From an uncultured bacterium (lineage in GTDB: Bacteria; Fidelibacterota; UBA2242; JAFGTP01), in NCBI GenBank assembly GCA_964472715.1, contig CAYYMT010000001.1, forward strand, positions 13,321-77,320: DNA of 64,000 nucleotides, read 5' to 3'. This document shows positions 6,263 to 44,734 of the stretch, piece by piece. Numbering within the stretch: the first letter of the stretch is position 1; the number at the start of each line of letters is the position of its first letter. Both the position numbers and the translations under genes were made by a program. Below the pieces are notes generated by a model that did not search any database, was not told the DNA's origin, and saw only the letters and a list, made by a program, of their open reading frames with translations.

Positions 6263-6309
6263 ACTGTTCCTCCTTTAGTATAACCCTATTTTTTTCGATA
6301 ATGTTACAT

Positions 6310-7647: not shown

Positions 7648-7878
7648 GATTTCCTCATCGCTTATTGGCACCTTTACTATAATAAGTATTTTATCTAACT
7701 AAAATCAAATAATCCCCCTTTTTTTTCTTTATAATTAAAATAATTACTAATAAAGGCTACAACGGTATTTGACAAACAGTTACCGGACAGACATGATAAA
7801 AGAGATGACTTTTAGGAGAGTCGCCGATTATTCTGTTGAAAGTTATCGGACTTTATTTTATATTGGACTATAAATATT

Positions 7879-28976: not shown

Positions 28977-29023
28977 ACCTCAACCTTAACCTTAACCTCA
29001 ACCTTAACCTCAACCTTAACCTC
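28964..29023. repeat. Hexanucleotide microsatellite (CCTYAA)x10 spanning both convergent stop codons
   Basis: The sequence reads cctcaa cctaaa cctcaa ccttaa ccttaa cctcaa ccttaa cctcaa ccttaa cctcaa. The murI stop TAA (28974-28976) and the minus-strand MORN-gene stop (29022-29024) both lie inside the repeat. Confidence 0.85.
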
Positions 29024-30044
29024 AACCAACCGGATTCCCATCAGGATCATAAAAAATCGGTTTCCCCTTCTTTTCACCGGAATCATAAAAATGTTTGGAC
29101 ATGATATCACCGGATTTATAATAGGACATTTGCGGGCCGTGCTTTTGATCCTTGCGGTAGCGTTTTTCAGTTTTTATGGTACCGTCTTCGTAAAACTCTT
29201 TTGCCACACCTTCTTTTTTATCCATCTCGAAGTCGACTTCAGATTTTATTGTACCGTCGGGAAAATATTCAATTGTCTTACCGTGAATGAGATTATCCCG
29301 GTATTCGGTTTCCTTAATTAAATTTTCCTTTTCATCATATTCTTTGGTTTTGCCGTATTTGCGGCCGTCTTTGAAGTTTTCCTCACGAATTTTATTACCG
29401 CTCTTACCATCATAAAAAACCGACAGTCCGTGAGGGACGCCATTGCGAAAATTTTCTTCCGATACCAGATTGCCTGTATCTTTGTCATACGTTTTTGAAG
29501 TACCGTGAAGATGGGCGCCTTTATAGCTTTTTTCCCTTTTCACACCATTAACATCGGTTTCAATATTCATTCCGTCAATATCACCTTGCCGGTAAGTGGC
29601 GGATTTTCGTATTTTACCGTTGACACCGTAGGTTTTGACTTCACCCCAGATTTTACCCTTTTTGTAGGGAGTTTCCTGAAATAATGTGCCGTCCTGCCGG
29701 TATTCACGGAGCATGAGCAGGTTTCGAATACGGAATTGTGATGAAAAGGGAGAAGTGGCCAGATACTTTTTTTCAACCCGATAGAAATTGACCTCCCCCA
29801 TCAGGCGAAATTGTTCCAGCGAAGATTTTGTGATCACAAAGGGATTGTTTTTTTTTGTCGCATTAAAGATCATTATAGTTACCAAACTCGCTATTCCCAC
29901 TAACACCAGAAAAAGTTTAAAATCATCCAGAAACAGCCAGGCCCCAAAAGCAAAAAGAACTGTAAAAATAAAAAACAGGATTGTAATTTTTTGGATCGCA
30001 TTAAATCTCTGAAAAGATTCTTTTATATTTACTTTCTTTTTCAT
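29022..30044 (-). CDS. Membrane-anchored MORN-variant / YwqK-family repeat protein
   Basis: N-terminal TM segment, then ~9 tandem ~23-aa repeats of the pattern G.....Y..G....E..Y.DG (for example GKTIEYFPDGTIKSEVDFEMDKKEG and AKEFYEDGTIKTEKRYRKDQKHG). Confidence 0.6.
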   Translation of the reverse strand: MKKKVNIKESFQRFNAIQKITILFFIFTVLFAFGAWLFLDDFKLFLVLVGIASLVTIMIFNATKKNNPFVITKSSLEQFRLMGEVNFYRVEKKYLATSPFSSQFRIRNLLMLREYRQDGTLFQETPYKKGKIWGEVKTYGVNGKIRKSATYRQGDIDGMNIETDVNGVKREKSYKGAHLHGTSKTYDKDTGNLVSEENFRNGVPHGLSVFYDGKSGNKIREENFKDGRKYGKTKEYDEKENLIKETEYRDNLIHGKTIEYFPDGTIKSEVDFEMDKKEGVAKEFYEDGTIKTEKRYRKDQKHGPQMSYYKSGDIMSKHFYDSGEKKGKPIFYDPDGNPVG

Positions 30045-30046
30045 TT

Positions 30047-31423
30047 TTACTTTTCCTTTAAATTCTGCTGAAAGGCAATCAGCAATTGCTCAGCTTCTTC
30101 ACGGCGACCTGTTTTTGCCAGTAAACCCACCAGTTTTTTCAGAGCCTCCTGATCATTATTATCCAAAGTCAGAATTAAATCAAACACAAAAATCGCTTCG
30201 CTGTATTTATGATTTTTAATCAGCAGCGTACCGACAATAGTCAGGTATTTTATATCCTTGACAGTAAAATGTGGCTTTAATTTTTCCAGATGTTGAAAAG
30301 CCTGGTCAAAAGACTGCTTATCCATATAGTAATTTAACAGTGTTTGATGAGCAAAGATATTGTTTTTGTTTAATTTCAATATTTCTTTACAAGTGGCGAC
30401 ACAATCTTTGACATCTTTGGTTTTTAAGTCAATTTTAGCGATTTCCTGCAGTATTTTTTCATCCTCAATGATAACATCTGTTGAGCCCCGTTTCCCTGAT
30501 TTTCGCAGTAATTGATTTTTATTCAGCAGATATTTCAGCCATTTTCCGGCCTCCACCCGGTTTCCCTGTTCAAGCGCGATTTTATAGAGCAGATAGTAGG
30601 CGCCGGTCTGGTCCTTTTCCAATTTTAAGGACTGGTTGATCTTTTCTACGGCGGCCTTATATTCTGCCGTTTTCATGAGTACTTCCGCATAAGTGACCAG
30701 CAGGGATGCGGTCATTTGCTTGTTCAATTGTTTCAGTTCCAGGGCTTTTTGGAAATTTTTTGCCGCGGCTTCATAGTCATTGCTCATGGCGTAATTCTGC
30801 GCCAATGTGTAGTAACCATAGGCATAATCCGGTTCTTCATGCACCATCTGCTTCAGTAATTCCAGGTTTCTGGCATTTTTTTTCTGCTGAACTGTTTCAT
30901 CCAGATTATAGCCGTAATGCAATATTTCAATATTGGTGGTAAATTCTCTGCCGCCAAGTTTTTTTAAACCGGTAGAAATCTGTTCATGAATCCGGCCCTT
31001 GAATTCAATGCCAAAGTGATTGGCAAACAACCGGTGGGCATCGGAAATATAAAAATAATCCCCTTTTTGAAAATTCTTAATATTGACCTTGTAAATTTCC
31101 GGCCGGGAGGGCTTATTATTAATAATTGATAAGAGTTCATTTTTCGAATCAGAATCCAGCCGTTCATCGGCATCCAGCCAGAGAATCCAGGTGCCGCCGG
31201 CATATTTGATGGATTCATTACGGGCGGCGGAGAAATTCCCATTCCATTTAAAATGGTGCACATCAGCGCCATATTTCTCGGCAATGTCAATTGTCTTATC
31301 TGTTGAGCCGGTGTCAATAATGATCATTTCATCCACGATACCGGCCACGCTTTCCAGACAGCCGGACAGCATTTTTTCTTCATTTTTTACAATCATGCAG
31401 AGGGATAATTTTTTATTGGTCAT
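30047..31423 (-). CDS. Family-2 glycosyltransferase with C-terminal TPR repeats
   Basis: The N-terminal GT-A fold is LSLCMIVKNEEKMLSGCLESV...IIIDTGSTDKT...WILWLDADE, with a DxD-like DADE. The C-terminal half is TPR-like helical repeats. Confidence 0.75.
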   Translation of the reverse strand: MTNKKLSLCMIVKNEEKMLSGCLESVAGIVDEMIIIDTGSTDKTIDIAEKYGADVHHFKWNGNFSAARNESIKYAGGTWILWLDADERLDSDSKNELLSIINNKPSRPEIYKVNIKNFQKGDYFYISDAHRLFANHFGIEFKGRIHEQISTGLKKLGGREFTTNIEILHYGYNLDETVQQKKNARNLELLKQMVHEEPDYAYGYYTLAQNYAMSNDYEAAAKNFQKALELKQLNKQMTASLLVTYAEVLMKTAEYKAAVEKINQSLKLEKDQTGAYYLLYKIALEQGNRVEAGKWLKYLLNKNQLLRKSGKRGSTDVIIEDEKILQEIAKIDLKTKDVKDCVATCKEILKLNKNNIFAHQTLLNYYMDKQSFDQAFQHLEKLKPHFTVKDIKYLTIVGTLLIKNHKYSEAIFVFDLILTLDNNDQEALKKLVGLLAKTGRREEAEQLLIAFQQNLKEK

Positions 31424-34400
31424 TCATGTCCTTTGTTTTGATGGTTTTCCAGCTGACTTTTCAATTGCAATGCCAGCTCATTTTGCGGGTCACCTTCCAA
31501 TATGCGGGAAATGTACTTTCCGGCCTCATCAACCCGGCCGGTTTCCAGGCTGAATTGGGCCATTCGCGATAATGCTGTTATATCGGCGGGATGCCGCTTA
31601 ATCACCTCGATAAATTCTTTGATTCCCTCCTCATATTGTTCAGTGAGGATATAGACCTCAGCCAGGTTGCGGCGCGGGTCAAGGGAATCTTCATTGTATG
31701 CCAGTGATTTTTTCAGATTATCGATGGCTTTGTCAGGTTCTCCCAATTCAAAATAAATTATCCCGATTAAATTCAGTACGAAGGAATTGTCACCATAAAT
31801 TTTTTCTAAATGCGGTAAATATTTCCGTAATGTTTTCTCATCCTGCATATTTTTAGCACACAAAACCCATCCTAATAAGCGGTTGCTCAGAGAACTTTTC
31901 TCATATTCCCATTGGTATTGTCTGGCCAGATCTGCCAGGTTATTTTGCCCGGCTGCCTCATTCACCTCATTGATAATCTTGAATATATCCTTTTGAAAAC
32001 GGATGATCGGTTTGGAGGCCAGTTTCTGAATTCGGTTTTGAGTTAGAAAAGTAACCACATTCCAATCCCAGTTCTTTTTCACGTAATCAGCAGCATATCG
32101 TCCCATTTTGGTCATAATATCCGGATTACGCCAGGCAAATTGCATTTTTTGCGCAAGATCGATTTTATCGGCTTCCCAAAACCAGGCTTTTTCCACTAGT
32201 TTCTCATTAGAAACTTTATCAAAATTTTGCACTCTCTTTTCCGCTTTGACCAAAAGTGATGTCCGCTTATTGCAAAAATCCAGGGCGGCACCGCCATTGG
32301 TAATAATTGTGGGAATGCCACAGGCCATGGCTTCCAGGATCGGCAACCCAAACCCTTCACCACGGTACGGATGAACCAGAACGTCACAGGCGGTGTAAAG
32401 CCCGACCAGTTCTTCATCACTTAGTGTGTCGTCAATATACTCAATTTCAGGATTATTTTTCCCATGAATCATGGTAGCGATTTTTTCCTTAAAATTTTGA
32501 TTTTTATAAAAAGACTCCCCGCCGAAATCCTTGATAACCAGACAAACTTCATCAGTTCGGGAAAAAGTATTAATATAAGATTCCAGCAAAATATCAATGC
32601 CCTTGCGGTAAATTGTGCCGCCAATAAACAGGAATTTGAATTTTTTACTGGTCTGGAGTTTATATGGCATTGCCTCAGGATTAAACCTCTCAGTATCCAC
32701 CCCATTGGGAACAACGAAAACTCTTTCTCTGTCGATCCCACTGTCCAGATAGACCTGTTTGACGTAGGTGGATGGTACCCACATTTCATCAACCTGATCG
32801 TTGAATGCATTTACCCATTTCTCCGGTAAAAAGCCAAATTCCCAGGGCTGAATAACCACCCAGTGTCCGGTTTTAGGCGGTTTCAGCTTGGGCGGCCACT
32901 GGTGGCGGACATGTATATCAGCGACACCAATCTGTTTATTTTCCAGTTTTTTAAGTTGCTTCCATTTACCTTCCGGCTGAAATTGATCTTTTTTATAGGG
33001 AAATAGTGACAGATTATAACCCGTTTGTGCCAGACGCAATGATTGTTCACGGTTTACCAAAGCCAGGGAATGATAGGCGAATTGATCTCCCTCCCAGACA
33101 ACTTTAATTTCTCCGGCCGGTTGATCATAAGGATTAATGGGTATATTTTTTATGGAATTGATTTTGCCTGCCAGTTCCTGATTGACCGAAGGTTTTTTTA
33201 AAATATGAGTTCCAAGGTACAGGGCTTCACCCTTCCGGTTGGTGAACCAGTAAATTTCCATCAATTTTTCCAATGCTTCCAAATCTTCAGGATGATGCAA
33301 TAAATAGATTTCCAATAAGTTTCCGGACTCTTCAAACTCTTGTTGATAGAAGAGAGAAATTCCCAATATTTTATTTAATTGATAGTCAAAGGGATCCAGT
33401 AAAAGCGCCTGGCGAAATAATTTTTCACTTTGGTCATAAATTTTATTATAGAGGCATATCTCTCCCAGTTTTTTGGCCACAAAATAATTATTGGATTTAT
33501 CCATCCGGAGATAGTGCAATGACCGCATAATGCCATTAACATCACCTTTTTCATGATAGATATTGGCCAGTTCTTTATTGGCAACAGGATGAAAAGGATT
33601 AATTTCTAATATTTTCTGAAAATGTACAGGTTTACGGGTGGCTTGCCCTTTTTTGAGCAAGGATTTTATTTCTGTTATATTTTCAGCCATATTTTTCAGG
33701 TAATTTGAATAGTTTTGCAAATCCTTTTTTCTGCGCCGCGCTTCCTCATCATCATTACTCAGTATATCGGCATAAATCCAGCGAAAAATTTGAATTTCCT
33801 CATCTTTGCCCTGTACACGGTAGTAATTTTCATTTAAAAATGTCTGAAAACGAACAAACCCCCTGGTTTCAGCAATAACGACAATATATTTCGGCGGCCG
33901 GCTTTCCAGACTTTGCATAATATTTTCTTCTTCCCTGAAGGGAGCCGGTACATATCCGGTAACACTTGGATGGGGACAAAACAGAGTGTTTGTCGGAGAG
34001 GGCCGTTCCGCCCAGAGAAAAATTTCATATTGCGCGCCCCAGACATAAATCTCATCTTCCCTTGTTGTTACTTCCTGTAAGGATTTGCCAATTTTTTCGC
34101 CCAGTGTGAAAAAGAGCCATTCATTGGGATGATTGATGTACATTAATCCGCGCTGAACCTTTTCCCGTTTAAAAATCCCCCTGATTTCCTTGCTGGTCAG
34201 CAACAGGCTCAAAATAACAATTACCAACACAATTGGAATTGATAAGATAAAAAACTTATTCCAGACAGCATAAATCCCCAGCGCCGATAAAATAGCCATA
34301 GGGGCCGCCACAGGCAGCAAATGATATGGCATGATGTGCTTGTTCAGGTAAACGGCTATTAATGCAAAAATCAGCCAACTACCAATTATAATTACAAAGG

Positions 34401-35319
34401 TATATGCAGAAAAATTTCCAAGAAATATCAGCGGAATGAATATTGTAAAAACCAGTGTCTGGCGAAAAAATTTACCATATATATCACGGGCAAATTGTTT
34501 TTGTTGTGACTGAAACCCCTGATTTTCCTTATCAATATAAACACGACGTTCCTTATCAACCTTTATTTCCCGATCTTTTCTGCCTGCGAAATTTTTCCGC
34601 CCATAAAAAATATTGTCTAAATGCATTAAAAAGGCTTTCGGTGTGAGGGAAAATATATCGAGAAAATGAGGGAACATTCTTTTTTTGTAAAAATAGAATC
34701 CCGTTAAAAACAACCCCGGTATAGCCCCCGCAAAAAACAGCAAATAATTATTCCAGGTAAACTCAATCAGAGCAATCGCGATAAGTACCGGCGGAAAGGT
34801 GTTAATATATGCCGATTGTTTGAAAAATAACGCCATAAAACTCATCAGACCGGCCAGAACGAAAACCCAGTTGCCATTCACAGGGCTGATACAAACCAGG
34901 GCAATGGCTAAAGCAGTGAAAGCGCTTTGTTCAATTTCATCACTGGATTGCACCCACACAAAGGTGGGCAGGGAAACCAGAATACCATAGAGCAAGGTCG
35001 CCACAAAGGCAAAATTAACCGGTAAAAACGCAGATGAAATAATAAAAACGGCAATTTGTGTTATCAACATGAAAAAAATTGCGCTATAGCGAAACAGAGA
35101 CCTTGAAACAGCAAAAAAATTTAATAAAAAGGCATACAGCAGCCAGCGCCCTGGCGGATGATTTTCCTGTGTATCTCTCACCGGCATTCTTTGTTTACGT
35201 AGCCAAAAAAGTCCGTGGTATCCATAAATACCAAAATCAGCATCCAGGGGCACTTGCAGATAAGGTATCTTTATCAAAATTGTAAAAATACATATCAGTG
35301 ATAAATATAAAATAACCAT
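31420..35319 (-). CDS. Giant multi-domain glycosylation protein: polytopic GT-C-like membrane region (PMT/ArnT-like), TPR block, GT4 glycosyltransferase domain, and C-terminal TPR block
   Basis: 1299 aa. At least 10 TM helices at the N-terminus, with a first-loop LDADFGIYGYHG acidic motif. TPR repeats around aa 560-700. GT4 motifs KFKFLFIGGTIYRKGID and HPYRGEGFGLPILEAMACGIPTI (EX7E). TPR repeats again at aa ~1130-1290. Confidence 0.7.
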   Translation of the reverse strand: MVILYLSLICIFTILIKIPYLQVPLDADFGIYGYHGLFWLRKQRMPVRDTQENHPPGRWLLYAFLLNFFAVSRSLFRYSAIFFMLITQIAVFIISSAFLPVNFAFVATLLYGILVSLPTFVWVQSSDEIEQSAFTALAIALVCISPVNGNWVFVLAGLMSFMALFFKQSAYINTFPPVLIAIALIEFTWNNYLLFFAGAIPGLFLTGFYFYKKRMFPHFLDIFSLTPKAFLMHLDNIFYGRKNFAGRKDREIKVDKERRVYIDKENQGFQSQQKQFARDIYGKFFRQTLVFTIFIPLIFLGNFSAYTFVIIIGSWLIFALIAVYLNKHIMPYHLLPVAAPMAILSALGIYAVWNKFFILSIPIVLVIVILSLLLTSKEIRGIFKREKVQRGLMYINHPNEWLFFTLGEKIGKSLQEVTTREDEIYVWGAQYEIFLWAERPSPTNTLFCPHPSVTGYVPAPFREEENIMQSLESRPPKYIVVIAETRGFVRFQTFLNENYYRVQGKDEEIQIFRWIYADILSNDDEEARRRKKDLQNYSNYLKNMAENITEIKSLLKKGQATRKPVHFQKILEINPFHPVANKELANIYHEKGDVNGIMRSLHYLRMDKSNNYFVAKKLGEICLYNKIYDQSEKLFRQALLLDPFDYQLNKILGISLFYQQEFEESGNLLEIYLLHHPEDLEALEKLMEIYWFTNRKGEALYLGTHILKKPSVNQELAGKINSIKNIPINPYDQPAGEIKVVWEGDQFAYHSLALVNREQSLRLAQTGYNLSLFPYKKDQFQPEGKWKQLKKLENKQIGVADIHVRHQWPPKLKPPKTGHWVVIQPWEFGFLPEKWVNAFNDQVDEMWVPSTYVKQVYLDSGIDRERVFVVPNGVDTERFNPEAMPYKLQTSKKFKFLFIGGTIYRKGIDILLESYINTFSRTDEVCLVIKDFGGESFYKNQNFKEKIATMIHGKNNPEIEYIDDTLSDEELVGLYTACDVLVHPYRGEGFGLPILEAMACGIPTIITNGGAALDFCNKRTSLLVKAEKRVQNFDKVSNEKLVEKAWFWEADKIDLAQKMQFAWRNPDIMTKMGRYAADYVKKNWDWNVVTFLTQNRIQKLASKPIIRFQKDIFKIINEVNEAAGQNNLADLARQYQWEYEKSSLSNRLLGWVLCAKNMQDEKTLRKYLPHLEKIYGDNSFVLNLIGIIYFELGEPDKAIDNLKKSLAYNEDSLDPRRNLAEVYILTEQYEEGIKEFIEVIKRHPADITALSRMAQFSLETGRVDEAGKYISRILEGDPQNELALQLKSQLENHQNKGHE

Positions 35320-35579
35320 AACTTGCTCCCTTGAATTCTGTTTTTTATTGTTTTATCCATAATCAGCCAATATTCCAGTTACAGATTCAGCCTTCTTGCT
35401 GAAAACTTACTTTTTTAAACCCTTAGTTCGAACCATATTGGGACCGGTTTCCGGATAAAACGGAACTGCAAAAATCAATATTTTCTTTCGTTTTGTTTTC
35501 ATATCAGATTTCACTGCTGTAACAACACATACTAATTAGTGTGTACTCTAAACATAAATTATACATTATAAAGCATGTA

Positions 35580-35831
35580 TTAAGCCGACTTGTAAGTATC
35601 ATAAATTCCTTTCCAGCCGGCGGGTGTCAAAAATTTGAAATGGTAATCATCGTCTGAACAATTGGCTTTAATCGTTATTGAACCGGGGCTGTTTTGGGTT
35701 AACGGATATGTTTCAATTTCCGGAATCAATCCTGAATTATTAAATTCTGAATAGAATTCAGGGGGATGAAAAGGATCATCAGGATATTGACATTGTGGCA
35801 ACTTTGCTATAAATACATCAGGTTTTGTCAT
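35580..35831 (-). CDS. Hypothetical small protein (83 aa), probably translationally coupled to the upstream adenylating enzyme
   Basis: The ORF overlaps the preceding gene's stop by 14 nt. No recognisable motif. Pro, Asp and aromatic-rich. Confidence 0.3.
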   Translation of the reverse strand: MTKPDVFIAKLPQCQYPDDPFHPPEFYSEFNNSGLIPEIETYPLTQNSPGSITIKANCSDDDYHFKFLTPAGWKGIYDTYKSA

Positions 35832-37158
35832 TTTTCACCTTTGAAAATACAAATTGGTATTTCCCCGATTTAAGTTTGGGTAGGGACTCGATAATGTTGA
35901 ATTTTATTTCACATGGCTCTCCCATAATATAATTAATTTTATTTTTTACTTTATCTAAATTATTATCACTTACTTCACTTTTTTGGGCTTCCAGATTAAT
36001 GGTGAATTTTTGATAATCCTCCTGAATCAGTTGAAATTTTTTCACAGACCTCATGAAATAGAACAAATGGGTAAACAGTTCACCATGAATAATATTGCCG
36101 TCCTTGCGAATAATGTGGGCGTTTTCACGGCCGTTTAATCCGGATAAGGAGCGAACGGCAGTACCGTCTATAGTATGACTTTCGCCAATATCGCCGGTAT
36201 CGAATTTTATCAGCGGCATGGCATAATTATTCAGCTGCGTTATAATGACATTGCCAACGCCCGCGTTCCTGATATATTGCCGGGAATTTTTGTTAAATAA
36301 CTCCAGATAAACGGAATGGCTGAATATATCGATATCCTCAGTTCCGATTCCAATAATACCAACTTCCTTTGAACCATATTGGTTAGCAATAATGGATTCC
36401 GGAAAAGCCGCCTTGATTTCCTCTTTTAACTCCGAATACATGGTTCCGGCGGTACAAACAATAACGTGGGGCTGAAAAACCTTCAGATTGGGATTACGAT
36501 TTTTATATTTGGCGATTTCAAAGATCGAATCCACATAAGTCCAGATCATTTTGGGGCGCACCGCATTGATTACCTCAATATAGTTTTCAATCAGGCGATG
36601 ATTGAGTTTGAAACTATTAAGCAAAATCCGGTTAAAGAAGTAATTTTTTAATTTACCGGAAAAGGATTTCTTTTCGTTGAAAATATCCTTTTCCGACCCC
36701 CATAGTTTGATCTCCTGCTCGCCGGGATGTTTATCATATAATTCGCCAAAATACAAGGTGTCCGCTACCATGCGGTTATAATAGTCGCTATCTTGTATAA
36801 AAACCACCGGCTCACCCGTTGATCCGCAGGAATTATTTTTGTAAATTTTTCGGCGGTGATTGTCTTTTGAGCATATTTGCTCATAGTTTTCCCGAATAAT
36901 TTTCTTAGTCAGAAGGGGAATTTGATTAAATTTCTCCCAATTGATTTTATCGTCTTTAATCAGGCCGATTTCATTAAAAAGTCTGTGATAATAAGTAGTA
37001 TTATGATAAGCATGAAATATTAATTTTCGCAACCGGAATAATTGATAATTATAAACATTTTCCCTATTTACATAGAGTTTTCTGGTCTGACGTAAATATT
37101 TAAGCACATCGGGTTTATATAATCTCAGTAAAATTGGCGCTATTTTGGTCTTAATCAT
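35818..37158 (-). CDS. CapK / phenylacetate-CoA ligase (PaaK)-like adenylate-forming enzyme
   Basis: NSCGSTGEPVVFIQD resembles the PaaK/F390-synthetase P-loop (SSGTTGKP). The size and the C-terminal lysine region fit. The start is taken at MIKTK (37158) to avoid overlapping the asnB-like gene; the ORF track extends to 37227. Confidence 0.6.
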   Translation of the reverse strand: MIKTKIAPILLRLYKPDVLKYLRQTRKLYVNRENVYNYQLFRLRKLIFHAYHNTTYYHRLFNEIGLIKDDKINWEKFNQIPLLTKKIIRENYEQICSKDNHRRKIYKNNSCGSTGEPVVFIQDSDYYNRMVADTLYFGELYDKHPGEQEIKLWGSEKDIFNEKKSFSGKLKNYFFNRILLNSFKLNHRLIENYIEVINAVRPKMIWTYVDSIFEIAKYKNRNPNLKVFQPHVIVCTAGTMYSELKEEIKAAFPESIIANQYGSKEVGIIGIGTEDIDIFSHSVYLELFNKNSRQYIRNAGVGNVIITQLNNYAMPLIKFDTGDIGESHTIDGTAVRSLSGLNGRENAHIIRKDGNIIHGELFTHLFYFMRSVKKFQLIQEDYQKFTINLEAQKSEVSDNNLDKVKNKINYIMGEPCEIKFNIIESLPKLKSGKYQFVFSKVKNDKT

Positions 37159-39031
37159 AATATACATCCAGCCATTTTTGAAAGACATAAAGCGTCCACA
37201 ATAATTTCCGGTTATCCTTTTTTTCATTTAGATGATCCTGCATGAGACTGTCGATATAATCGTAATTAAAAATATTATAATGCTGAATATTTTGCCTGGA
37301 CAGCGTTTGCAGAAATTCTGATTTCAAATCTGATTTTATCCACTTGGTAACGGGAATGCCAAATCCTTTTTTGGGACGATTGATAATTTTTTCCGGAAGA
37401 TATTTTTTGGCCAGGCGTTTCAGTAAATATTTTGACGTCAGGCCGCGATATTTTAGCCGGGCCGGCACTTTCGCCATGAACTCCACCACTTCCTTGTCCA
37501 AAAACGGAACCCTAACCTCCAGGGAATTCATCATACTGGCGCGGTCAACCTTGACCAGCATATTATCCTGCAGATAAAAGCGCATGTCCAGCCACAAAGA
37601 CCGCTCCCAGTTATTTTCTGTCTGGCACCGTTTCATATGCTGCCTGATGATTTCTAATTTTTGAACCTTCTTACCCAGCACATTCAATAATTCAGGTGAT
37701 AGCAGATGTTTTTTTTGGTTAGTATCAAAGGAGCCGAGCCATATCTGATGGCGAATATCAGGATCATACTTCAGGCCTGCAACAAATTTCTTGGCTTTAA
37801 AATCAAAACTTATATTCTCGTCTGATGTTGGTAACAAATTCACCACCGGATTAAGCAGATAATGTGAAAATCGCGGCATAAAACCACCGATTTTCCGGGC
37901 TAAATAAGTTGGATATCCGGCAAATATTTCGTCACCCCCATCACCGCTCAGAGCAACAGTGACATTTTCCCTGGTGAGTTGCGACAGCAGATAAGTGGGC
38001 AAAATGGAATCGTCAGCAAAGGGTTCGTCCATATTGCGGACAATTTCCGGCAGGATGTCCATCATTTCACCAGGTGTAAAAATTTTTTCAAAGTGTTCCG
38101 TATCCAGATAGCCCGACATAAACCGGGCGTAACTGGTTTCATCAAAAGAATCTTCGGCAAATCCAATACTGAAGGTTTTCAGGTTATTTTTCATGCTTCT
38201 TGATAAGTAGGCCGCAATCAGGCTGGAATCAAGGCCACCGCTGAGGAAAGACCCCAACGGCACATCACTGACTTTGCGGCGCTCCACGGCCTTCCTGATC
38301 AGCCAATCCAGTTCCTGAACATAAAAATCAACATCACGGGAGCTATACTTTGGCTGAAATTCTAAAAAATAATATTGATGCCTGGTTAATTTATTCCTTG
38401 ATAATTCCAGATAATGGCCCTGTTCAAGCTTATGAATATTATTAAAGATCGATAAGGGAGCCGGTACCGATTCGAATGTCAGGTAATAATTCAGCGCTTC
38501 ATAGTTGAGTTCTTTTTTGAAAGCAGGAAAAGTGAGAATGGATTTTAGTTCCGAAGCAAAAATGAAATCGCCATCTTTATGGTAATAATATAACGGCTTG
38601 ATGCCAAAGCGGTCCCGGGCCAGGAAAAGTGAGTCCCGGTTGAGATCAAGAATAGCAAAAGCAAACATGCCGTTCAGTTTATCCAGGCAGTTCACCCCTT
38701 CTTCTTCATAAAGATGCAAAATGACTTCTGTATCGGATTGGGTTTTAAATTGATGACCCGCCGCCTGTAACCTTTTTCTCAGTTCCCGGAAATTATAGAT
38801 TTCGCCGTTAAAAACAATCGCCAGTGATCTGTCCTCATTAAAAATCGGCTGGTCTCCGGTGTTGATATCAATCACCCGCAACCTGCGCATGCCAATGGCA
38901 AAATCATCGATCACAAAATATCCGCTGTCATCCGGGCCGCGATAAGCGATTTTATCGCACATTTTTTCCAGTATATTGGATTTTTCCTGCTGTGAAAATT
39001 TTTTTGATATGAATCCGGCTATCCCACACAT
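37151..39031 (-). CDS. asnB: Asparagine synthetase (glutamine-hydrolysing) family amidotransferase (AsnB/PseA-like)
   Basis: N-terminal MCGIAG Ntn-Cys. PP-loop SGGLDSS in the synthetase domain. 626 aa. Confidence 0.85.
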   Translation of the reverse strand: MCGIAGFISKKFSQQEKSNILEKMCDKIAYRGPDDSGYFVIDDFAIGMRRLRVIDINTGDQPIFNEDRSLAIVFNGEIYNFRELRKRLQAAGHQFKTQSDTEVILHLYEEEGVNCLDKLNGMFAFAILDLNRDSLFLARDRFGIKPLYYYHKDGDFIFASELKSILTFPAFKKELNYEALNYYLTFESVPAPLSIFNNIHKLEQGHYLELSRNKLTRHQYYFLEFQPKYSSRDVDFYVQELDWLIRKAVERRKVSDVPLGSFLSGGLDSSLIAAYLSRSMKNNLKTFSIGFAEDSFDETSYARFMSGYLDTEHFEKIFTPGEMMDILPEIVRNMDEPFADDSILPTYLLSQLTRENVTVALSGDGGDEIFAGYPTYLARKIGGFMPRFSHYLLNPVVNLLPTSDENISFDFKAKKFVAGLKYDPDIRHQIWLGSFDTNQKKHLLSPELLNVLGKKVQKLEIIRQHMKRCQTENNWERSLWLDMRFYLQDNMLVKVDRASMMNSLEVRVPFLDKEVVEFMAKVPARLKYRGLTSKYLLKRLAKKYLPEKIINRPKKGFGIPVTKWIKSDLKSEFLQTLSRQNIQHYNIFNYDYIDSLMQDHLNEKKDNRKLLWTLYVFQKWLDVYYD

Positions 39032-40137
39032 TGTTTCAGCATCTCCTCATATTTTGGATATAAATTGTCCCAGTTATTGTTCCGGACAATAAATTTTCTC
39101 ATTTGTTGACCCGACTGATTGATTAGAGCGGGATTCTCAAGCAGGTATTGCAATTTTTCTTTCCATGCCATAGGATTTTGATAATCACTGACCACCCAAT
39201 TACTTATGATCGTCTCATCCTCCCACTGAAGATGAGCATTGGCAGAGCTTAAAAGCGCGCATTGATTAGCCACGGCTTCCAGAGCGGAATTTGACATCCC
39301 TTCATCCAGCGAGGGTAAGACAAAAATGTGAGCGTCCCGGTATTGTCGCACCAATGCTTCCCGGTTTTTCCAGGTATCAAATATCACTTTTTCCCCAAGA
39401 CCTTTTTCCCTGACCAGGGATTGTAAGTTCGTTTTGCAAGGCCCGTCGCCAATTAGTTTAAATTGGAAATCCTTTTGCAATAATGCCAATGCTTTTATGA
39501 AAACCCCGAGATTTTTTTGTTCCGATAAGCGGCCGGTGTAAAGGAATTTAATTTTACACTGCTGCAAATTGTCACGCGCCGGCATCTCCCGAATCGTAAT
39601 TCCGTTGGGTAATATTTTGATTTTTCCGGAATTAATACCGGTTTGCCCGGCTAAATATGCCAGCCGCCGGGAATTGACATGCACAACAGCGGCATGATTA
39701 CAGACCATCTTAATAAAAGGCCGGGCGAAAAACTGTAACCGATTATACCGGGCGCCTAATTGAAAACCGGGCACATCACCACCGCGGAGGGAGACAATAT
39801 AAGGAACTTTAAATAAAAATTTATACCACATGGCAAGAAAGCCGCCGGGAATAGTGAAAAAGGCCAGGATAATATCCGGCGAAAAAGACCGGTTGACAGG
39901 TCTTAATTTCAAAAATCCCTTAACAATAAATAACAAAAATTCATTGACAGAGCCTTTTGAGGCCGCTTTTCGTCCTGATTGAACAGTCGTCATTTCTTCA
40001 TTTTTCTGATCAACAGGCCCGGTCAGTAAATGAACCTTGTGGTTATGTTGTTTTAATCGCTTGTATAATTCCTTTGTAATAGTTGCAGCGCCGCCGCCAT
40101 TGGGTGGAAACTCGTGATTGATCAATAATATTTTCAT
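39019..40137 (-). CDS. Family-1 (GT4) glycosyltransferase
   Basis: MKILLINHEFPPNGGGAATITKELYKRL is the GT4 N-domain. LPSLDEGMSNSALEAVA is an EX7E-type motif. Confidence 0.75.
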   Translation of the reverse strand: MKILLINHEFPPNGGGAATITKELYKRLKQHNHKVHLLTGPVDQKNEEMTTVQSGRKAASKGSVNEFLLFIVKGFLKLRPVNRSFSPDIILAFFTIPGGFLAMWYKFLFKVPYIVSLRGGDVPGFQLGARYNRLQFFARPFIKMVCNHAAVVHVNSRRLAYLAGQTGINSGKIKILPNGITIREMPARDNLQQCKIKFLYTGRLSEQKNLGVFIKALALLQKDFQFKLIGDGPCKTNLQSLVREKGLGEKVIFDTWKNREALVRQYRDAHIFVLPSLDEGMSNSALEAVANQCALLSSANAHLQWEDETIISNWVVSDYQNPMAWKEKLQYLLENPALINQSGQQMRKFIVRNNNWDNLYPKYEEMLKQCVG

Positions 40138-40167: not shown

Positions 40168-41241
40168 TCAATAATAAATGGTATTATTGTTCATTAAAAA
40201 ATTATAAGCCTCAGAAACGTCATTGTTTTCCGGAAGACTTTTCTGAAAAATGCCATAGACCTTTGCAGCCTGTGTCTTCATATCCAGTCTAAACAAAGTA
40301 TTTATAAACAATCTGACAATTTCAGGGTTCAATGGATTTTTTTCATACAGCGGCTTTAGCTTGTTCATTACTTGCATTAGGTTGTTATTTTGCAAATCAT
40401 GAATTACCAGTTCATATTCATCAGTGGAAGAACTTCTGTTTCCAGGAGAAACAATGGGGTTATGGAATAAATATTCCCAACCATTTAGTTCGAGAAACAA
40501 TTTAGACTCAGAATAATTATTAAGTAAATCCTGAAGATTATCTGGATTTGTCTTAATCAGGTCCGTTTTCAGATTAAAATTATAATCAATTGCAAAAAAA
40601 TCATAAATTCGTTTCAAAACGCCACTGTTTATTTTACCGCTATCCAGAGAGTTAGGATCGAAGAAATCCTCATAATAAATTTCCAGATAATTATCTTTAA
40701 ATAAATTTTTAAATCTGTTTCTATTTTCTGTAATACTCCTTTTAATAATAGCAAGATCATTAAGTAAACGTTGGTCAATTGGGAGGGTTATTTTATGAGG
40801 TGCATATTTTTCCGTGCTGTGGGATTTCCGGCCTAATTGTTCTTTCCTGATATTTAAAATAGTTGAAATCAACGTTTTGAGACTATTTTTTCTGATCAGG
40901 TGAATTACTTTATTAAATTTACGATTCAGAATGTGCATTTGATCAGGAATGATCGCCAACTGGTCATATTTGATATTCATACCAACAATTTTACAGTTCT
41001 TTTTCTTTTTAAATGTTGTATCAAAAAATTCACTTAACACCTGTTTCTGGCCGGGCGGCGTAATGTTGACGGCTGATTTCTTGACTTTTTTTCTCCAGAA
41101 ATGGAAATAATTATCTTTTTCCATAAAATCCTGCCACAGAAGTAATTCCGGATAAACATGAATTTCAGGATGGCTGGTAAGCAGTGAGGAAAGAAATCCT
41201 GTACCGGATCGCTGAGTGGCAAGTAATATAAATTTTTCCAT
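40168..41241 (-). CDS. Sulfotransferase (Stf0-like PAPS-dependent sulfotransferase domain) with a C-terminal helical extension
   Basis: MEKFILLATQRSGTGFLSSLL resembles the 5'-phosphosulfate-binding loop of Stf0-type sulfotransferases (ATQRSGS). 357 aa. Confidence 0.6.
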   Translation of the reverse strand: MEKFILLATQRSGTGFLSSLLTSHPEIHVYPELLLWQDFMEKDNYFHFWRKKVKKSAVNITPPGQKQVLSEFFDTTFKKKKNCKIVGMNIKYDQLAIIPDQMHILNRKFNKVIHLIRKNSLKTLISTILNIRKEQLGRKSHSTEKYAPHKITLPIDQRLLNDLAIIKRSITENRNRFKNLFKDNYLEIYYEDFFDPNSLDSGKINSGVLKRIYDFFAIDYNFNLKTDLIKTNPDNLQDLLNNYSESKLFLELNGWEYLFHNPIVSPGNRSSSTDEYELVIHDLQNNNLMQVMNKLKPLYEKNPLNPEIVRLFINTLFRLDMKTQAAKVYGIFQKSLPENNDVSEAYNFLMNNNTIYY

Positions 41242-41256
41242 ATTTATTTATTTTTT

Positions 41257-43143
41257 TTATTTTATTATTTGTTCAACCAAATATTCATCACTTTTTTTCG
41301 CCTCAAAAAATCCGCGGGTAATGATTTCACTCAGCAGGCCGACGATAATAAATTGTAATCCCCCGAGCATTGTAAAGATCAGAAATATTAAAAAGGTCTG
41401 TCCGGTTATGCCAATCCCCAACAGCCGGTGTGAGAAAAAAAGGAGCAGGGACAATGTAAACCCGCTGAAGATCGTCATCAGGGCAAATTTTCCAAAAAAC
41501 AACAGCGGATGGGTACGAAAACCGGTATAAAAGCGTAAAGTGATCAGGTCGAGAATCACTCGCCAGACCCGCTCCAGTCCGTATTTTGCTTCCCCGAATT
41601 TCCGGCTGTGATGGGTGACCGGAATTTCCGCTACTTTGATGCCCAGCCAGGCGGCATAGGCGGGAATGAAACGATGCATTTCACCGTAGAGTTTAATGCG
41701 CTTGACAATCGCTTTTTTATAAGCTTTCAGGGAGCAGCCAAAATCATGAATTCGAATGCCTGTGCCTTCAATCAGTTTATTAATGATCCTGTTGGCTATT
41801 TTTGAAGGTATTTTTCGTGTCAATTTCTTGTCCTGCCGGTTTTTGCGCCAGCCGCTGACCAGATCATAGCCTTCACTCATTTTAGCCAGCAATTTGGGAA
41901 TATCCACGGGATCATTTTGCAAGTCCGCATCCATAGTGATCACGATATCGCCGGAAGCATACTTAAATCCGGCAGCAAAGGCCGCGGTCTGTCCGTAATT
42001 GCGGCGAAACTTCAGGGTAACCACATTGTCATTCTGCCGGGACAAACTTTCCAGTATTGTCAGGGAATTATCCGTGCTGCCGTCATCAATAAATATAATT
42101 TCATAGTTTTTTCCCAGTTCCTGCAAAACCGATTTGATTTTATCGAACAGGATGATCAGGGATTCCTCTTCATTGTAAACCGGTATAACGATGGATAATT
42201 CAGTGCTCTTTTGCTTTTCCTGACTATCAAAAGTATCAATAATTTTCATAGGCTGAATTTTTCCGATCACTGCCTGCCGGGACTTTGGGCCGGCCTGTTT
42301 GGTTAAAATCGGAAAAAATTCTTTCCACACATCGATCGAATGGGATACTTTCCCTTCTAAAGTGTAGGTTAGGGCCAGGGTCGCGTGGATGTCATCGGCA
42401 TCGGGTTTGAGTTTCAGACAGTTTTGAAAATCTTCCCGGGCTTTTTGCACTTCATTGAGATTCAAATAGCAAAAACCACGGTGATACAGCGCGTCGACTG
42501 CATTGCCGGAAAGATTAAGAATTTGTGTAAAAGTTTGAATGGCTGTTTCATAATCATTGTCTTGTATGTCAATGATTCCTTTTCGAAAGAGCAGATCCCT
42601 GTTTTTGGTATTTTTGTTAAAATACCGGTGTATCAAAGTTTTGGCTTTATCCAGTTCATTGGATTCGGAATAGAATTCCAGCAGATAGACCAGGGATTCA
42701 TTGTTGTAATTTACAATTTCAGCCGCTTGCAGATAGAAGGATTCAGCCTTGGCGCGGTTATTCTGATCACTGTAAATTTCTGCCAGGTCCCGGCAAATAT
42801 CATATTTTCCCGGCGCCAGGCTGTAGGCTTTTTCCATAGCTGTCAGGCCGTCATCAATTTTTCCCCGGAGATAGAGTGTTTTTCCCATTCCGTAAAGGGC
42901 CTGAAAATGGTTGTCGTCTATATTCATAGCATTGTGAAAATATTTTTCCGCTTCCCGCATCTGACCGATAGCCAGATGCATTTCCCCGATCAATAGATTA
43001 ATATGCAGATCAGCACTATTATGAATATAAACAGACTCCAGCAGGTCGAGAGCGGCCACATACTCCCGGTTGCGGATCTTTTCCTCAATTAAATTTAATT
43101 TTGAATTCAGGGAATTCTGGGGTTTCATAAAATCCTCCGGCAT
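41257..43143 (-). CDS. TPR-repeat protein fused to a polyprenyl-phosphate-type GT2 glycosyltransferase (DPM1/ArnC/GtrB-like) with C-terminal TM helices
   Basis: The N-terminal ~300 aa are TPR repeats. Then SIVIPVYNEEESLIILF...IIFIDDGSTDNS...DADLQN follow, which is the GT2 DXD pattern. The C-terminal hydrophobic helices end in GLLSEIITRG. A GGAGG RBS sits 7 nt before the ATG, and the gene starts only 9 nt after csrA. Confidence 0.75.
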   Translation of the reverse strand: MPEDFMKPQNSLNSKLNLIEEKIRNREYVAALDLLESVYIHNSADLHINLLIGEMHLAIGQMREAEKYFHNAMNIDDNHFQALYGMGKTLYLRGKIDDGLTAMEKAYSLAPGKYDICRDLAEIYSDQNNRAKAESFYLQAAEIVNYNNESLVYLLEFYSESNELDKAKTLIHRYFNKNTKNRDLLFRKGIIDIQDNDYETAIQTFTQILNLSGNAVDALYHRGFCYLNLNEVQKAREDFQNCLKLKPDADDIHATLALTYTLEGKVSHSIDVWKEFFPILTKQAGPKSRQAVIGKIQPMKIIDTFDSQEKQKSTELSIVIPVYNEEESLIILFDKIKSVLQELGKNYEIIFIDDGSTDNSLTILESLSRQNDNVVTLKFRRNYGQTAAFAAGFKYASGDIVITMDADLQNDPVDIPKLLAKMSEGYDLVSGWRKNRQDKKLTRKIPSKIANRIINKLIEGTGIRIHDFGCSLKAYKKAIVKRIKLYGEMHRFIPAYAAWLGIKVAEIPVTHHSRKFGEAKYGLERVWRVILDLITLRFYTGFRTHPLLFFGKFALMTIFSGFTLSLLLFFSHRLLGIGITGQTFLIFLIFTMLGGLQFIIVGLLSEIITRGFFEAKKSDEYLVEQIIK

Positions 43144-43152
43144 TAGCCAGGG

Positions 43153-43383
43153 CTATTTTTTTTTGCTGAAGGATTTTAGTATATCAGCATTCAAGGTGCT
43201 GTTAAAAACGGAAGCGCGATTTTTTGCCTTGATTCGTTCGTATACCTCTTCACGATGCACCGGAACCTCGCGGGGCGCGTTAATTCCGATTTTGGTGTGG
43301 CCGTTACTGCATTCCAAAACTCTGATGACGATGTTGCTTCCAATTCTGATACTCTCTTCGGTTTTTCTGGTTAAAACAAGCAT
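43153..43383 (-). CDS. csrA: Carbon storage regulator CsrA
   Basis: MLVLTRKTEESIRIGSNIVIRVLECSNGHTKIGINAPREVPVHREEVYERIK matches CsrA almost along its full length, including the GxxG RNA-binding region. Confidence 0.9.
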   Translation of the reverse strand: MLVLTRKTEESIRIGSNIVIRVLECSNGHTKIGINAPREVPVHREEVYERIKAKNRASVFNSTLNADILKSFSKKK

Positions 43384-43413: not shown

Positions 43414-43848
43414 TTAAAATTTGTCTAATTTGTGTTCCTCGGACAATTTCGGATCATCCAATATGATCTGTTTGCCATTGCCTGTAAAGGTATTCAATAT
43501 CAATGGCGCTTTGGTATTGGCCACAAAATGTTTTGTTTCTTCGTCAATCCGCAGGATTACAAAAAGGCGTAAATACTTTTGATCCTCAATTTCAAGATTA
43601 CGCATTTCATTTTTTGGAAATGAAATATCGTCAAAAATATTCAGAAGGCTTCCATCCAGAACGATCATGGATATATCCGGCAATTCTGTGGATTGAAACA
43701 ATTTGAAGGGTGGAAAGTCTTCCAGGTTTTTGAATTCAAATTCTGACAAATGTTCAAATCCCGGCAAGCCATATTCAAAATTGAATATTGTCGCACTTCC
43801 GGTTTTTGCTTCTTTAGTCATTACATTGCTCATCTTCATATCTTTCAT
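43414..43848 (-). CDS. fliW: Flagellar assembly factor FliW
   Basis: IFNFEYGLPGFEHLSEFEF...FKLFQSTE...MIVLD follows the FliW pattern. It sits immediately upstream of csrA in the conserved fliW-csrA pair. The true start may be an internal Met near 43821. Confidence 0.75.
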   Translation of the reverse strand: MKDMKMSNVMTKEAKTGSATIFNFEYGLPGFEHLSEFEFKNLEDFPPFKLFQSTELPDISMIVLDGSLLNIFDDISFPKNEMRNLEIEDQKYLRLFVILRIDEETKHFVANTKAPLILNTFTGNGKQIILDDPKLSEEHKLDKF

Positions 43849-43852
43849 TTAG

Positions 43853-44734
43853 TTATCGGAGAAAATTCAATATATTGAGATTGATCGCATTTGAGGTGGA
43901 ATGCAAAGCAGCCTGATAAGCGGTTTCTTCATTCTTGTAATTGGTAATCGCTTCAGCCATATCCGCATCCTCCAGGTTGGATAAATAGGACTTCAGATTC
44001 ACATTGGCGGTGTTCAGACGGTTTTCCGTATTGATGATCTGAATTTTTGACGAACCAATAGCTGAACTGCGTTTGCCGATTTCCGCCGATGAATCATCGA
44101 GCAGGTCAATGGCTTTGGTAATCGCGTCAGTATCACCATTATCCAGAGCATTCTTAAAATTGATCAAATTTTCAAAAGCCTCTGTTTCAATTAATTCCTG
44201 ACCGGTGGTATTAATATCCACATAATAATTATCAGCTATTTTACGGTTCACTTTTTTATCATTACCCGTGTAAGTGATTGAATTGCCATTGTATATAAAA
44301 GCTTTGTCTGTTTTGGATTTTGTGCCGGCAAAGACAGCTTTACCCATGAATGTTGAGTTTGACAAGGAAACAGTATCCTCAATAATATCATTGACCTGAT
44401 CCCGGAAAGTTTCCCAATTGTCGCCATTATTGGATATATCAGCCGCGCGAATGGCGATTTCCTTGGCTGTTACCAGTCCTTCATTGATCTGGTCCAAAGC
44501 AGACAGGGATACATCGATCCAGCCTTTTGCCAGACTAATGCCCTCCAGGTATTGGCTGTTGTTGGAAATAGCATTCCGGAAAGATTCCACTTTCGTGTAA
44601 TCCACAGGATCATCGGAAACTTTTTCCAGTTTTTTCCCGGTGGCAGTCTGATTTTGGTATACCGCCATTTTTTCACGGCTTGAATTAATGTTGGTTAATA
44701 AATTTCTTGATATCATACCTTCTGTTATTCGCAT
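43853..44734 (-). CDS. flgL: Flagellar hook-associated protein 3 (FlgL)
   Basis: MRITEGMISRNLLTNINSSREKM...ATGKKLEKVSDDPV matches the flagellin-N/FlgL N-terminus. The C-terminal ...AINLNILNFLR fits as well. 293 aa. Confidence 0.8.
   Translation of the reverse strand: MRITEGMISRNLLTNINSSREKMAVYQNQTATGKKLEKVSDDPVDYTKVESFRNAISNNSQYLEGISLAKGWIDVSLSALDQINEGLVTAKEIAIRAADISNNGDNWETFRDQVNDIIEDTVSLSNSTFMGKAVFAGTKSKTDKAFIYNGNSITYTGNDKKVNRKIADNYYVDINTTGQELIETEAFENLINFKNALDNGDTDAITKAIDLLDDSSAEIGKRSSAIGSSKIQIINTENRLNTANVNLKSYLSNLEDADMAEAITNYKNEETAYQAALHSTSNAINLNILNFLR

Follow-up and report, generated by a model that had tools for sequence, protein, structure and literature searches.

On which face of the membrane does an enzyme work if its single chain joins a glycosyltransferase (GT) module of the GT-C type, a class defined in practice by working with lipid-linked donors beyond the membrane, to a GT domain of the cytoplasmic, nucleotide-sugar-using type? 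The question is raised by a 1299-residue protein encoded in a 64,000-nucleotide stretch of DNA (the window; contig CAYYMT010000001.1 of assembly GCA_964472715.1) from an uncultured bacterium of the Fidelibacterota. This protein, hereinafter the target, combines a GT-C membrane module, a small alpha/beta domain, two blocks of tetratricopeptide repeats (TPRs) and, between the latter, a GT4 domain (Table 1). A preliminary description of the locus had assigned the GT-C site to the outer face of the membrane and the GT4 site to the inner one. Our analysis instead places both on the same side, which is probably the cytoplasmic one, implying that the GT-C module would be inserted the other way round from its described counterparts.

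The fused protein and its domains

The open reading frame (ORF) was recovered exactly as previously described. It begins at the first start codon past an in-frame stop, so that a longer N-terminal tail is impossible, with a GGGAG Shine-Dalgarno sequence about 8 nt upstream of the ATG; at the other end its stop codon and the start of the next gene overlap by 4 nt. Full-length relatives of identical domain order were found at 92% (L001) and 56% identity (L003, a Candidatus Neomarinimicrobiota metagenome-assembled genome) in the genome collection, and at 100%, 57%, 56% and 56% in the protein collection, where a member of the identical cluster is annotated as 'tetratricopeptide repeat protein [Fidelibacterota bacterium]'. 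That the gene might be an artefact, with two or more genes merged by a frameshift or a chimeric assembly, is extremely improbable and we reject it: the uninterrupted architecture is seen in at least five independent Fidelibacterota/Marinimicrobia assemblies (56-100% identity), variants bearing a GT2 domain in place of the GT4 keep the identical junction, and we found no point in its support. The earlier claim of a single gene thus stands, whereas its characterization of the fusion as unusual needs qualification. The architecture is uncommon but not unique, as residues 1-515 are shared at 35-41% identity by a family with GT2+TPR or GT4+TPR modules behind the membrane module, distributed across Fidelibacterota (Neomarinimicrobiota), KSB1 and Brocadiaceae.

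An AlphaFold2 (AF2) model of residues 1-535, built on 19 family sequences (pLDDT 86.8, pTM 0.87), bears out the proposal that the N-terminal region is a GT-C module akin to ArnT and PMT, with 11 transmembrane (TM) helices where at least 10 had been counted before. These follow a 1-6-4 order (2-16; 73-98, 101-122, 127-143, 152-166, 175-186, 189-212; 289-300, 306-325, 331-355, 357-374), which is the general GT-C helix organization (PMC6801728). The first loop features two short juxtamembrane helices (27-40 and 57-68), and the fourth (213-287), modeled in part with low confidence, is long and equivalent to the ArnT PL4 loop. Foldseek searches with this model agree with the GT-C fold, and it superposes on ArnT over 430 residues. 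Residues were mapped by combining an alignment including E. coli ArnT with the published ArnT/TMTC motif analysis, which places D55/E56, K85, D158 and K203 of ArnT in extracytoplasmic loops (PMC7801869). Every one of these positions has an equivalent in the target (Table 1), including the first-loop acidic motif noted earlier, and D127 is separated from the KPP-like motif by 73 residues, exactly as in ArnT. Across the 19-sequence alignment D26, D28, E52, P56-W59, R73, S125, E128, K167, Q168, N326, H328 and H333 are invariant, while at least 90% of the sequences retain H54, P55 and D127. Thus, both the 11-helix core with long first and fourth loops and the acidic motif after helix 1, together with conserved basic and acidic positions in the loops that follow, are as in other GT-Cs.

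At the sequence level, the target has no Pfam match, PMT_2 and PMT included, at E<=1 in its first ~560 residues and none in NCBIfam either, nor was any family listed for residues 1-559 at E<=0.01. A sequence search of the full target against the PDB returned TPR and GT4 matches alone, and a profile of the 19 homologues found nothing real among PDB sequences for the membrane module. Further, a word-indexed search with the N-terminal region retrieved one fragment; the family surfaced with a full-length query and an exhaustive profile search. The latter recovered 1361 relatives at E<=0.001, mostly stand-alone proteins of ~500 residues whose matches cover the membrane part as well as the small alpha/beta domain at its C-terminal end. 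Nine of the ten relatives scanned belong to Pfam PMT_2, with those at E 1e-13 to 1e-27 being PMT_2 proteins. The link to the GT-C family is, therefore, transitive, running via relatives that are themselves PMT_2.

The C-terminal part is more conventional. Its AF2 model (residues 516-1299, built on 34 sequences; pLDDT 87.9) comprises a linker helix, 11 TPR-like helices (563-724), a two-Rossmann GT-B domain (738-1105) and 13 TPR helices (1112-1295), in keeping with the flanking TPR arrays previously noted and with the Pfam TPR matches at about 567-594 and at 1166-1295. The GT4 assignment holds: Glycos_transf_1 (residues 891-1032) reaches 64.5 bits (cut-off 26.4) and Glyco_transf_4 (803-878) 29.4 bits (cut-off 28.5), and E988 and E996 of the EX7E motif, along with the basic nucleotide-diphosphate-binding residues R905 and K906 within GGTIYRKG, are invariant in the 34-sequence alignment. 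In Foldseek searches the GT-B part matches GlgM, PBCV B736L, sucrose-phosphate synthase, MshA, PglA, PimB' and BshA (TM 0.6-0.77), and the best full-length matches of the whole TPR-plus-GT-B arrangement are SPINDLY and bacterial OGT. Moreover, hundreds of soluble proteins, 370-650 residues in length, share 40-55% identity with the domain (977 homologues), some of them being fused to TPR, methyltransferase or GT2 domains. Hence, it is predicted to be an ordinary cytoplasmic-type nucleotide-sugar (Leloir) enzyme, with retaining transfer, the mode of the GT4 family, as its putative activity. The GT2 domains fused in its place in the relatives are likewise of a generic soluble type and not ArnC-like.

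Orientation of the GT-C module in the membrane

No hydrophobic segment is found past TM11 (residues 375-1299). An odd number of helices (11) without a later membrane segment puts this entire region and the catalytic loops on one and the same side of the membrane, contradicting the separation of the GT-C and GT4 sites by the membrane in the preliminary description. Were that side the extracytoplasmic one, as is canonical, an intact Leloir GT4 would be exported to a compartment without nucleotide sugars, which presents a paradox. A way out is offered by the distribution of charged residues. We counted lysines and arginines (K+R) per loop, taking the first 25 residues of the C-tail, and found 33 on the side of the catalytic loops and C-tail (EL1 7, EL3 1, EL4 18, EL5 1, C-tail 6) versus 1 on the side of the N-tail and the loops CL1-5; even without the long EL4 the ratio is 15 to 1. 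E. coli ArnT, as a canonical comparison, has the N-tail MKSVRY and K/R-rich loops CL1-CL4 where the target has none.

The relatives, compared in a MAFFT alignment of 152 sequences, fall into two groups whose K+R ranges in CL1-5 do not overlap. In 123 canonical relatives the N-tail is K/R-rich, and the median K+R count is 13 in CL1-5 (range 8-19) and 9 in EL1+EL4; in the 29 low-K/R relatives the N-tail consists of 0-4 residues, uncharged in nearly all, and the medians are 2 (range 0-5) and 22, respectively. The low-K/R group includes all 19 GT2/GT4-fused proteins and all seven other C-terminally extended relatives of more than 640 residues (P0037, P0060, P0070, P0075, P0078, P0101, P0144), four of which have TPR or GT2+TPR domains, with the extensions of P0037, P0075 and P0144 having no assigned domain. 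Its remaining members are P0023 and P0024, stand-alone proteins of ~500 residues near the fused clade, and P0124 (632 residues, with a weak TPR match). P0125, the only N-terminal GT2 fusion among the relatives (a GtrB-like order), shows the canonical charge. Under the positive-inside rule, the reversed K/R bias predicts the opposite insertion for the C-terminally extended clade. By this prediction, the cytoplasmic N-terminus and extracytoplasmic catalytic loops of other GT-Cs are not retained, and we consider it probable that the module is upside-down relative to every described GT-C, with its N-terminus outside and EL1-EL5 and the C-terminal ~900 residues in the cytoplasm.

The core of the low-K/R set, i.e., the 19 fused proteins with P0023 and P0024, forms a coherent clade. 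A single origin of the whole set was also considered but is not upheld, as its eight other members (P0037, P0060, P0070, P0075, P0078, P0101, P0124, P0144) are scattered at ~20% identity. These are distant PMT_2-type proteins outside the core clade that are C-terminally extended and likewise K/R-poor in the 'cytoplasmic' loops. It is possible that the predicted inversion has several origins, or else that it is the mark of a deep lineage.

The periplasm has no nucleotide-sugar donors, and it is there that an intact Leloir GT4 (or GT2) would find itself if the target retained the canonical orientation, with a periplasmic active site and the alpha/beta domain, both TPR blocks and the GT4 domain exported alongside. 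Such a placement has the weight of precedent: every characterized GT-C has a cytoplasmic N-terminus and extracytoplasmic catalytic loops (PMC6801728; PMC11127046), and a GT-C followed by C-terminal lumenal TPRs is known from TMTC1-4 (PMC7801869). However, it would put the 33 K+R outside against 1 inside, it is only the C-terminally extended clade that has lost K/R from the N-tail and all five cytoplasmic loops, and flagellin, the acceptor considered below, bypasses the periplasm (PMC7591256); it is, in our estimate, quite improbable. A comparably slim chance is accorded to a split topology, implicitly assumed in the preliminary description, wherein the segment 57-71 spans the membrane as one of 12 helices, leaving both termini inside and the first acidic loop alone outside, with the rest including the GT4 domain inside. 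This segment is fairly hydrophobic (mean Kyte-Doolittle 1.39) and the 12-helix reading also fits the charge rule (27 versus 6 K+R, with the C-terminus still inside); predictors often mis-call a TM helix in precisely this first loop of GT-Cs (PMC6801728). Nevertheless, it would part D26/D28/E52 from R73, D127 and K167 across the membrane and thereby destroy the GT-C site, yet these residues are conserved; the helix 57-68 of the AF2 model has just 12 residues; and the superposition of the model on ArnT extends over 430 residues. Moreover, the canonical relatives are K/R-rich in both the N-tail and CL1, requiring an even number of helices between them, and hence the helix 57-68 is no membrane span. 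It is thus the inverted 11-helix module whose donor and acceptor we consider below.

Donor, acceptor and the gene neighborhood

The genes from ~58 kb down to 29 kb of the window are all on the minus strand. The island containing the target lies directly downstream of flgK-flgL-fliW-csrA, which form its flagellar boundary. The gene following csrA combines ~300 N-terminal residues of TPRs with a complete ArnC/GtrB-type polyprenyl-phosphate GT, matching solved structures of ArnC (9hwj, E 3e-66) and GtrB (5ekp, E 2e-40) over the full length. Its product likely makes a lipid-linked sugar donor. This renders unlikely the earlier idea that the target itself builds the lipid-linked glycan; GT4 enzymes are not known as makers of polyprenyl-phosphate sugars. 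The presence of the synthase in the same island suggests that the putative donor of the GT-C site is linked to polyprenyl phosphate, and its TPR fusion, of a kind for which we found no discussion in the literature, implies a candidate protein partner for the lipid-sugar synthase.

The gene overlapping the end of the target encodes a GT2 domain with TPRs, whose best NCBIfam match is the SunS-family peptide S-glycosyltransferase (E 2e-31, below the cut-off). A partner of this kind and size (~460 residues) occurs near or after a member of the GT-C family in six loci, namely the window and five loci of relatives (Table 1), which suggests that it may be an obligate partner of the GT-C fusion family.

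We advance the following mechanism as a tentative one, somewhat short of an even chance: an inverted, cytoplasm-facing GT-C would draw its donor from the neighboring synthase and act on a cytoplasmic protein acceptor, possibly flagellin. The inversion would expose the catalytic loops, the TPRs and the GT4 domain to the cytoplasm. The TPR-fused ArnC-like synthase would load a sugar onto polyprenyl phosphate at the inner face, and the GT-C site would use it on the face of its synthesis, with no need for a flippase; on this account of the donor we regard the chances as evenly balanced. The GT4 site would, for its part, use a nucleotide sugar. The TPR arrays of the target, the synthase and the adjacent GT2-TPR protein would bind a common cytoplasmic protein, to which the GT2-TPR, GT4 and GT-C sites would add successive sugars. 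Flagellin receives its sugars prior to export, in the cytoplasm, from TPR-bearing transferases such as FlmG, whose TPRs bind it there (PMC7591256), and hence would be a plausible target only if the enzyme faces the cytoplasm. As the island follows fliW-csrA and TPR transferases glycosylate flagellin prior to export, it is the best candidate substrate in this genome; with the neighborhood fliW-csrA-flgL-flgK as the basis, its binding and glycosylation by the target are plausible. That the TPR arrays hold pre-export flagellin in particular, with the three sites adding sugars in succession, is the more doubtful part of this proposal.

Several points weigh against the above account. The case for the orientation is built on the positive-inside rule together with a helix count from a predicted model; in our searches of the literature, neither a cytoplasm-facing GT-C nor one with flagellin as its acceptor was described; and the target clade has a histidine in place of the lysine corresponding to ArnT K85. 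No flagellin gene was found among the scanned ORFs of the window despite a near-complete basal-body, hook-junction and fliW-csrA set, the 293-aa Flagellin_N/C protein after flgK being read as FlgL. Membrane ORFs resembling GtrA, SMR or MATE are absent from 29-43 kb, but another part of the genome could encode a flippase. Finally, the GT2-type relatives (P0009, P0014, P0020) have neither an ArnC-like synthase nor flagellar genes within 10 kb, and are instead found in general sugar-biosynthesis clusters; the proposed donor and target may hence be specific to the orthologue group of the target, or wrong. Adjacent GT2 genes in two such loci (L005/L006) were considered as candidates for an ArnC-like neighbor and rejected, for they share just the generic N-terminal 100 residues.

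The setting of the relatives would also be compatible with the same inverted enzyme acting on a lipid-linked or other non-protein glycan at the inner face, such as a capsule, S-layer or envelope precursor, rather than on flagellin. The TPRs would then serve to assemble a multi-enzyme complex, and their presence on three different transferases of the island fits such enzyme-enzyme docking. However, the island begins immediately after fliW-csrA here, its conserved GT2-TPR partner resembles SunS-type peptide glycosyltransferases, and the combination of TPRs with a GT-B domain is typical of protein glycosyltransferases; accordingly, we think a non-protein acceptor unlikely. More radically, the GT-C module, in either orientation, might be non-catalytic and merely serve as a membrane anchor or a polyprenyl-phosphate-binding scaffold that positions a cytoplasmic TPR-GT4 unit. 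Consistent with a loss of activity, it scores below every Pfam GT-C model and has H54 at the ArnT K85 position, and the GT2-type relatives lack a nearby ArnC-like donor synthase. Still, across sequences only 35-40% identical D26, D28, E52, R58, R73, K167 and H328 are invariant, with D127 in at least 90%, and an ArnC-type donor synthase is encoded in the very same island; a mere anchor, therefore, seems to us less probable still than a non-protein acceptor.

The remainder of the island resembles that of the orthologous loci L003 and L009, with which it is syntenic. At the position of the synthase, L009 has a gene of the same size for a TPR+GT2 protein (627 aa), cut off by the end of the locus, the likeness being by size and domains. 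The MORN-repeat gene directly downstream of the GT2-TPR gene is kept in L003, with unannotated genes of the same size (340 aa) at this position in L009 and L010. As listed, the AsnB-type gene and the ORF of the CapK-like ligase share 77 nt (37151-37227), and the ligase probably starts later than the first codon of its ORF. Between the ligase and the target lies a deletion scar. Here, an 83-aa ORF (35580-35831) joins the ends of a DUF362 gene of the relatives (aa 3-38 and aa 433-483), and a 31-codon ORF (35407-35502) is the remnant of a GT4 N-terminus; at this position L003 and L009 encode DUF362, GT4, Glf (UDP-galactopyranose mutase) or an amidohydrolase, and an uncharacterized protein of 532-542 aa. 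A promoter and terminator scan of 28.8-44 kb gave counts at chance level (56 versus 42.5 +/- 8.3 and 15 versus 14.7, respectively), and no operon boundaries were drawn from it. Elsewhere in the window, and unrelated to the target, a 392-aa protein without a family match adjoins a multihaem cytochrome c (6310-7671) in 5084-7671 of the minus strand.

Table 1. Features of the target protein, its gene neighborhood and the corresponding partner genes of related loci. Nucleotide positions are those of the window, except in the last five rows, where they are those of the locus named.
Feature	Residues	Nucleotides	Strand	Remarks
Target ORF	1-1299	31420..35319	-	one intact frame, 1299 codons, ATG start; GT-C module, alpha/beta domain, TPR block 1, GT4, TPR block 2
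GT-C (ArnT/PMT_2-like) membrane module	1-388	34156..35319	-	11 TM helices
First-loop acidic motif PLDADFGIYGYH	24-35	35215..35250	-	D26/D28 = ArnT D55/E56, EL1; as LDADFGIYGYHG at 25-36
ENHPPGRW	52-59	35143..35166	-	= ArnT E84-K85 / PMT_2 'KPP' phosphate-binding motif; start of second juxtamembrane helix
H54	54			= ArnT K85 position; start of second juxtamembrane helix
R73	73			start of TM2; equivalent of the Pmt1 arginine pairing with the acidic motif
QSSDE	124-128	34936..34950	-	D127 = ArnT D158, loop EL2
FFKQSAY	165-171	34807..34827	-	K167 = ArnT K203, loop EL3
Long fourth loop	213-287			EL4
NKHIMPYH	326-333	34321..34344	-	conserved EL5 motif, TM9-TM10
Amphipathic helix + small alpha/beta domain	389-520	33760..34155	-	AF2 secondary structure, two-stretch matches, alignment; common to ~500-aa PMT_2-type relatives
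Long linker helix + TPR block 1	521-725	33145..33759	-	Pfam TPR_17 at 567-594; 11 helices in AF2 model
GT4 (GT-B fold) domain	738-1105	32005..33108	-	Pfam, invariant residues, AF2 + Foldseek, 977 homologues
EX7E motif E988...E996	988-996	32332-32358	-	within EGFGLPILEAMACGIPTI (988-1005)
TPR block 2	1112-1299	31423..31986	-	Pfam TPR_19/TPR_2/TPR_1; AF2 helices
Flagellar genes		up to ~58083	-	same strand order: rod protein, fliF, fliG, fliH, fliI, fliJ, flgF/G-type rod proteins, flgA, flgH, flgI, flgN, flgK, flgL
flgK		44747-46105	-	
flgL		43853-44734	-	
fliW		43414-43848	-	
csrA		43153-43383	-	
TPR + ArnC/GtrB-type polyprenyl-phosphate GT		41257..43143	-	two C-terminal TM helices; PDB match, NCBIfam
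Sulfotransferase-like protein		40168-41241	-	
GT4		39019-40137	-	
AsnB-type amidotransferase		37151-39031	-	
PaaK/CapK-like ligase		35818-37227	-	
Deletion scar		35320-35831	-	between CapK-like ligase and target
GT2 (SunS-like peptide glycosyltransferase type) + TPR		30047..31423	-	458 aa
MORN-repeat protein		29022..30044	-	N-terminal hydrophobic segment
GT2-TPR partner, L003		13734-15116		
GT2-TPR partner, L009		13797-15167		
GT2-TPR partner, L010		13639-15021		
GT2-TPR partner, L005		15151-16551		
GT2-TPR partner, L011		16737-18101		

Known systems and the significance of a proposed inverted GT-C

Set against characterized systems, the target shares with ArnT (GT83) and the PMT_2 family the GT-C fold and the motifs at catalytic positions, but has 11 rather than 13 helices, lacks a Pfam match, reverses the K/R bias (33 versus 1 on the 'wrong' side), replaces the K85-equivalent lysine with H54 and adds a TPR-GT4-TPR extension of 780 residues. 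The TMTC1-4 O-mannosyltransferases of eukaryotes offer the closest parallel for the membrane part, with an 11-helix ArnT-like GT-C followed by TPRs on the side of the catalytic loops (PMC7801869); however, their TPRs are lumenal, they have no Leloir domain and their orientation is canonical. Conversely, FlmG, GmaR, OGT and SPINDLY have, like the target, a TPR array and a nucleotide-sugar GT on one chain (PMC7591256), and FlmG and GmaR also share its flagellar gene neighborhood, the likeness to FlmG being one of architecture. These proteins are, in contrast, soluble without a membrane GT-C, whereas the target has 11 TM helices, and their catalytic domain is of the GT41 or GT2 type in place of GT4.

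At the level of the island, the comparison is with the three-component systems, which comprise a GtrB/ArnC-type synthase, a flippase of the GtrA, ArnEF or MATE type and a GT-C (PMC11127046). The island has the pairing of synthase, a GT2 enzyme with C-terminal TM helices, and GT-C, but 29-43 kb is devoid of a flippase gene and both enzymes carry TPRs. Further, as its GT-C is predicted to be cytoplasm-facing, the donor would be consumed at the site of its synthesis, and the predicted orientation argues against an extracytoplasmic acceptor.

Taken together, we tentatively propose, with a little less than even confidence, that a clade of ArnT/PMT-like GT-Cs has been flipped to face the cytoplasm, where it would use polyprenyl-phosphate sugars without a flippase and, along with fused Leloir transferases and TPRs, glycosylate cytoplasmic proteins such as flagellin. 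It is because GT-Cs work on the far side with lipid-linked donors that flippases and three-component systems exist; if true, the proposal would breach the rule confining glycosyltransferases with lipid-linked donors to sites outside the cytoplasm, and would explain how flagellin could come within reach of a GT-C in the first place. It has a bearing on annotation too, since proteins of this family are at present labeled just 'glycosyltransferase' or 'TPR protein'. In evolutionary terms, the clade would represent a large-scale natural inversion of the topology of a whole 11-helix protein by redistribution of charge. In biochemical terms, it would constitute a new way of using lipid-linked sugars, allowing cytoplasmic proteins to be glycosylated with sugars available solely in lipid-carrier-bound form.

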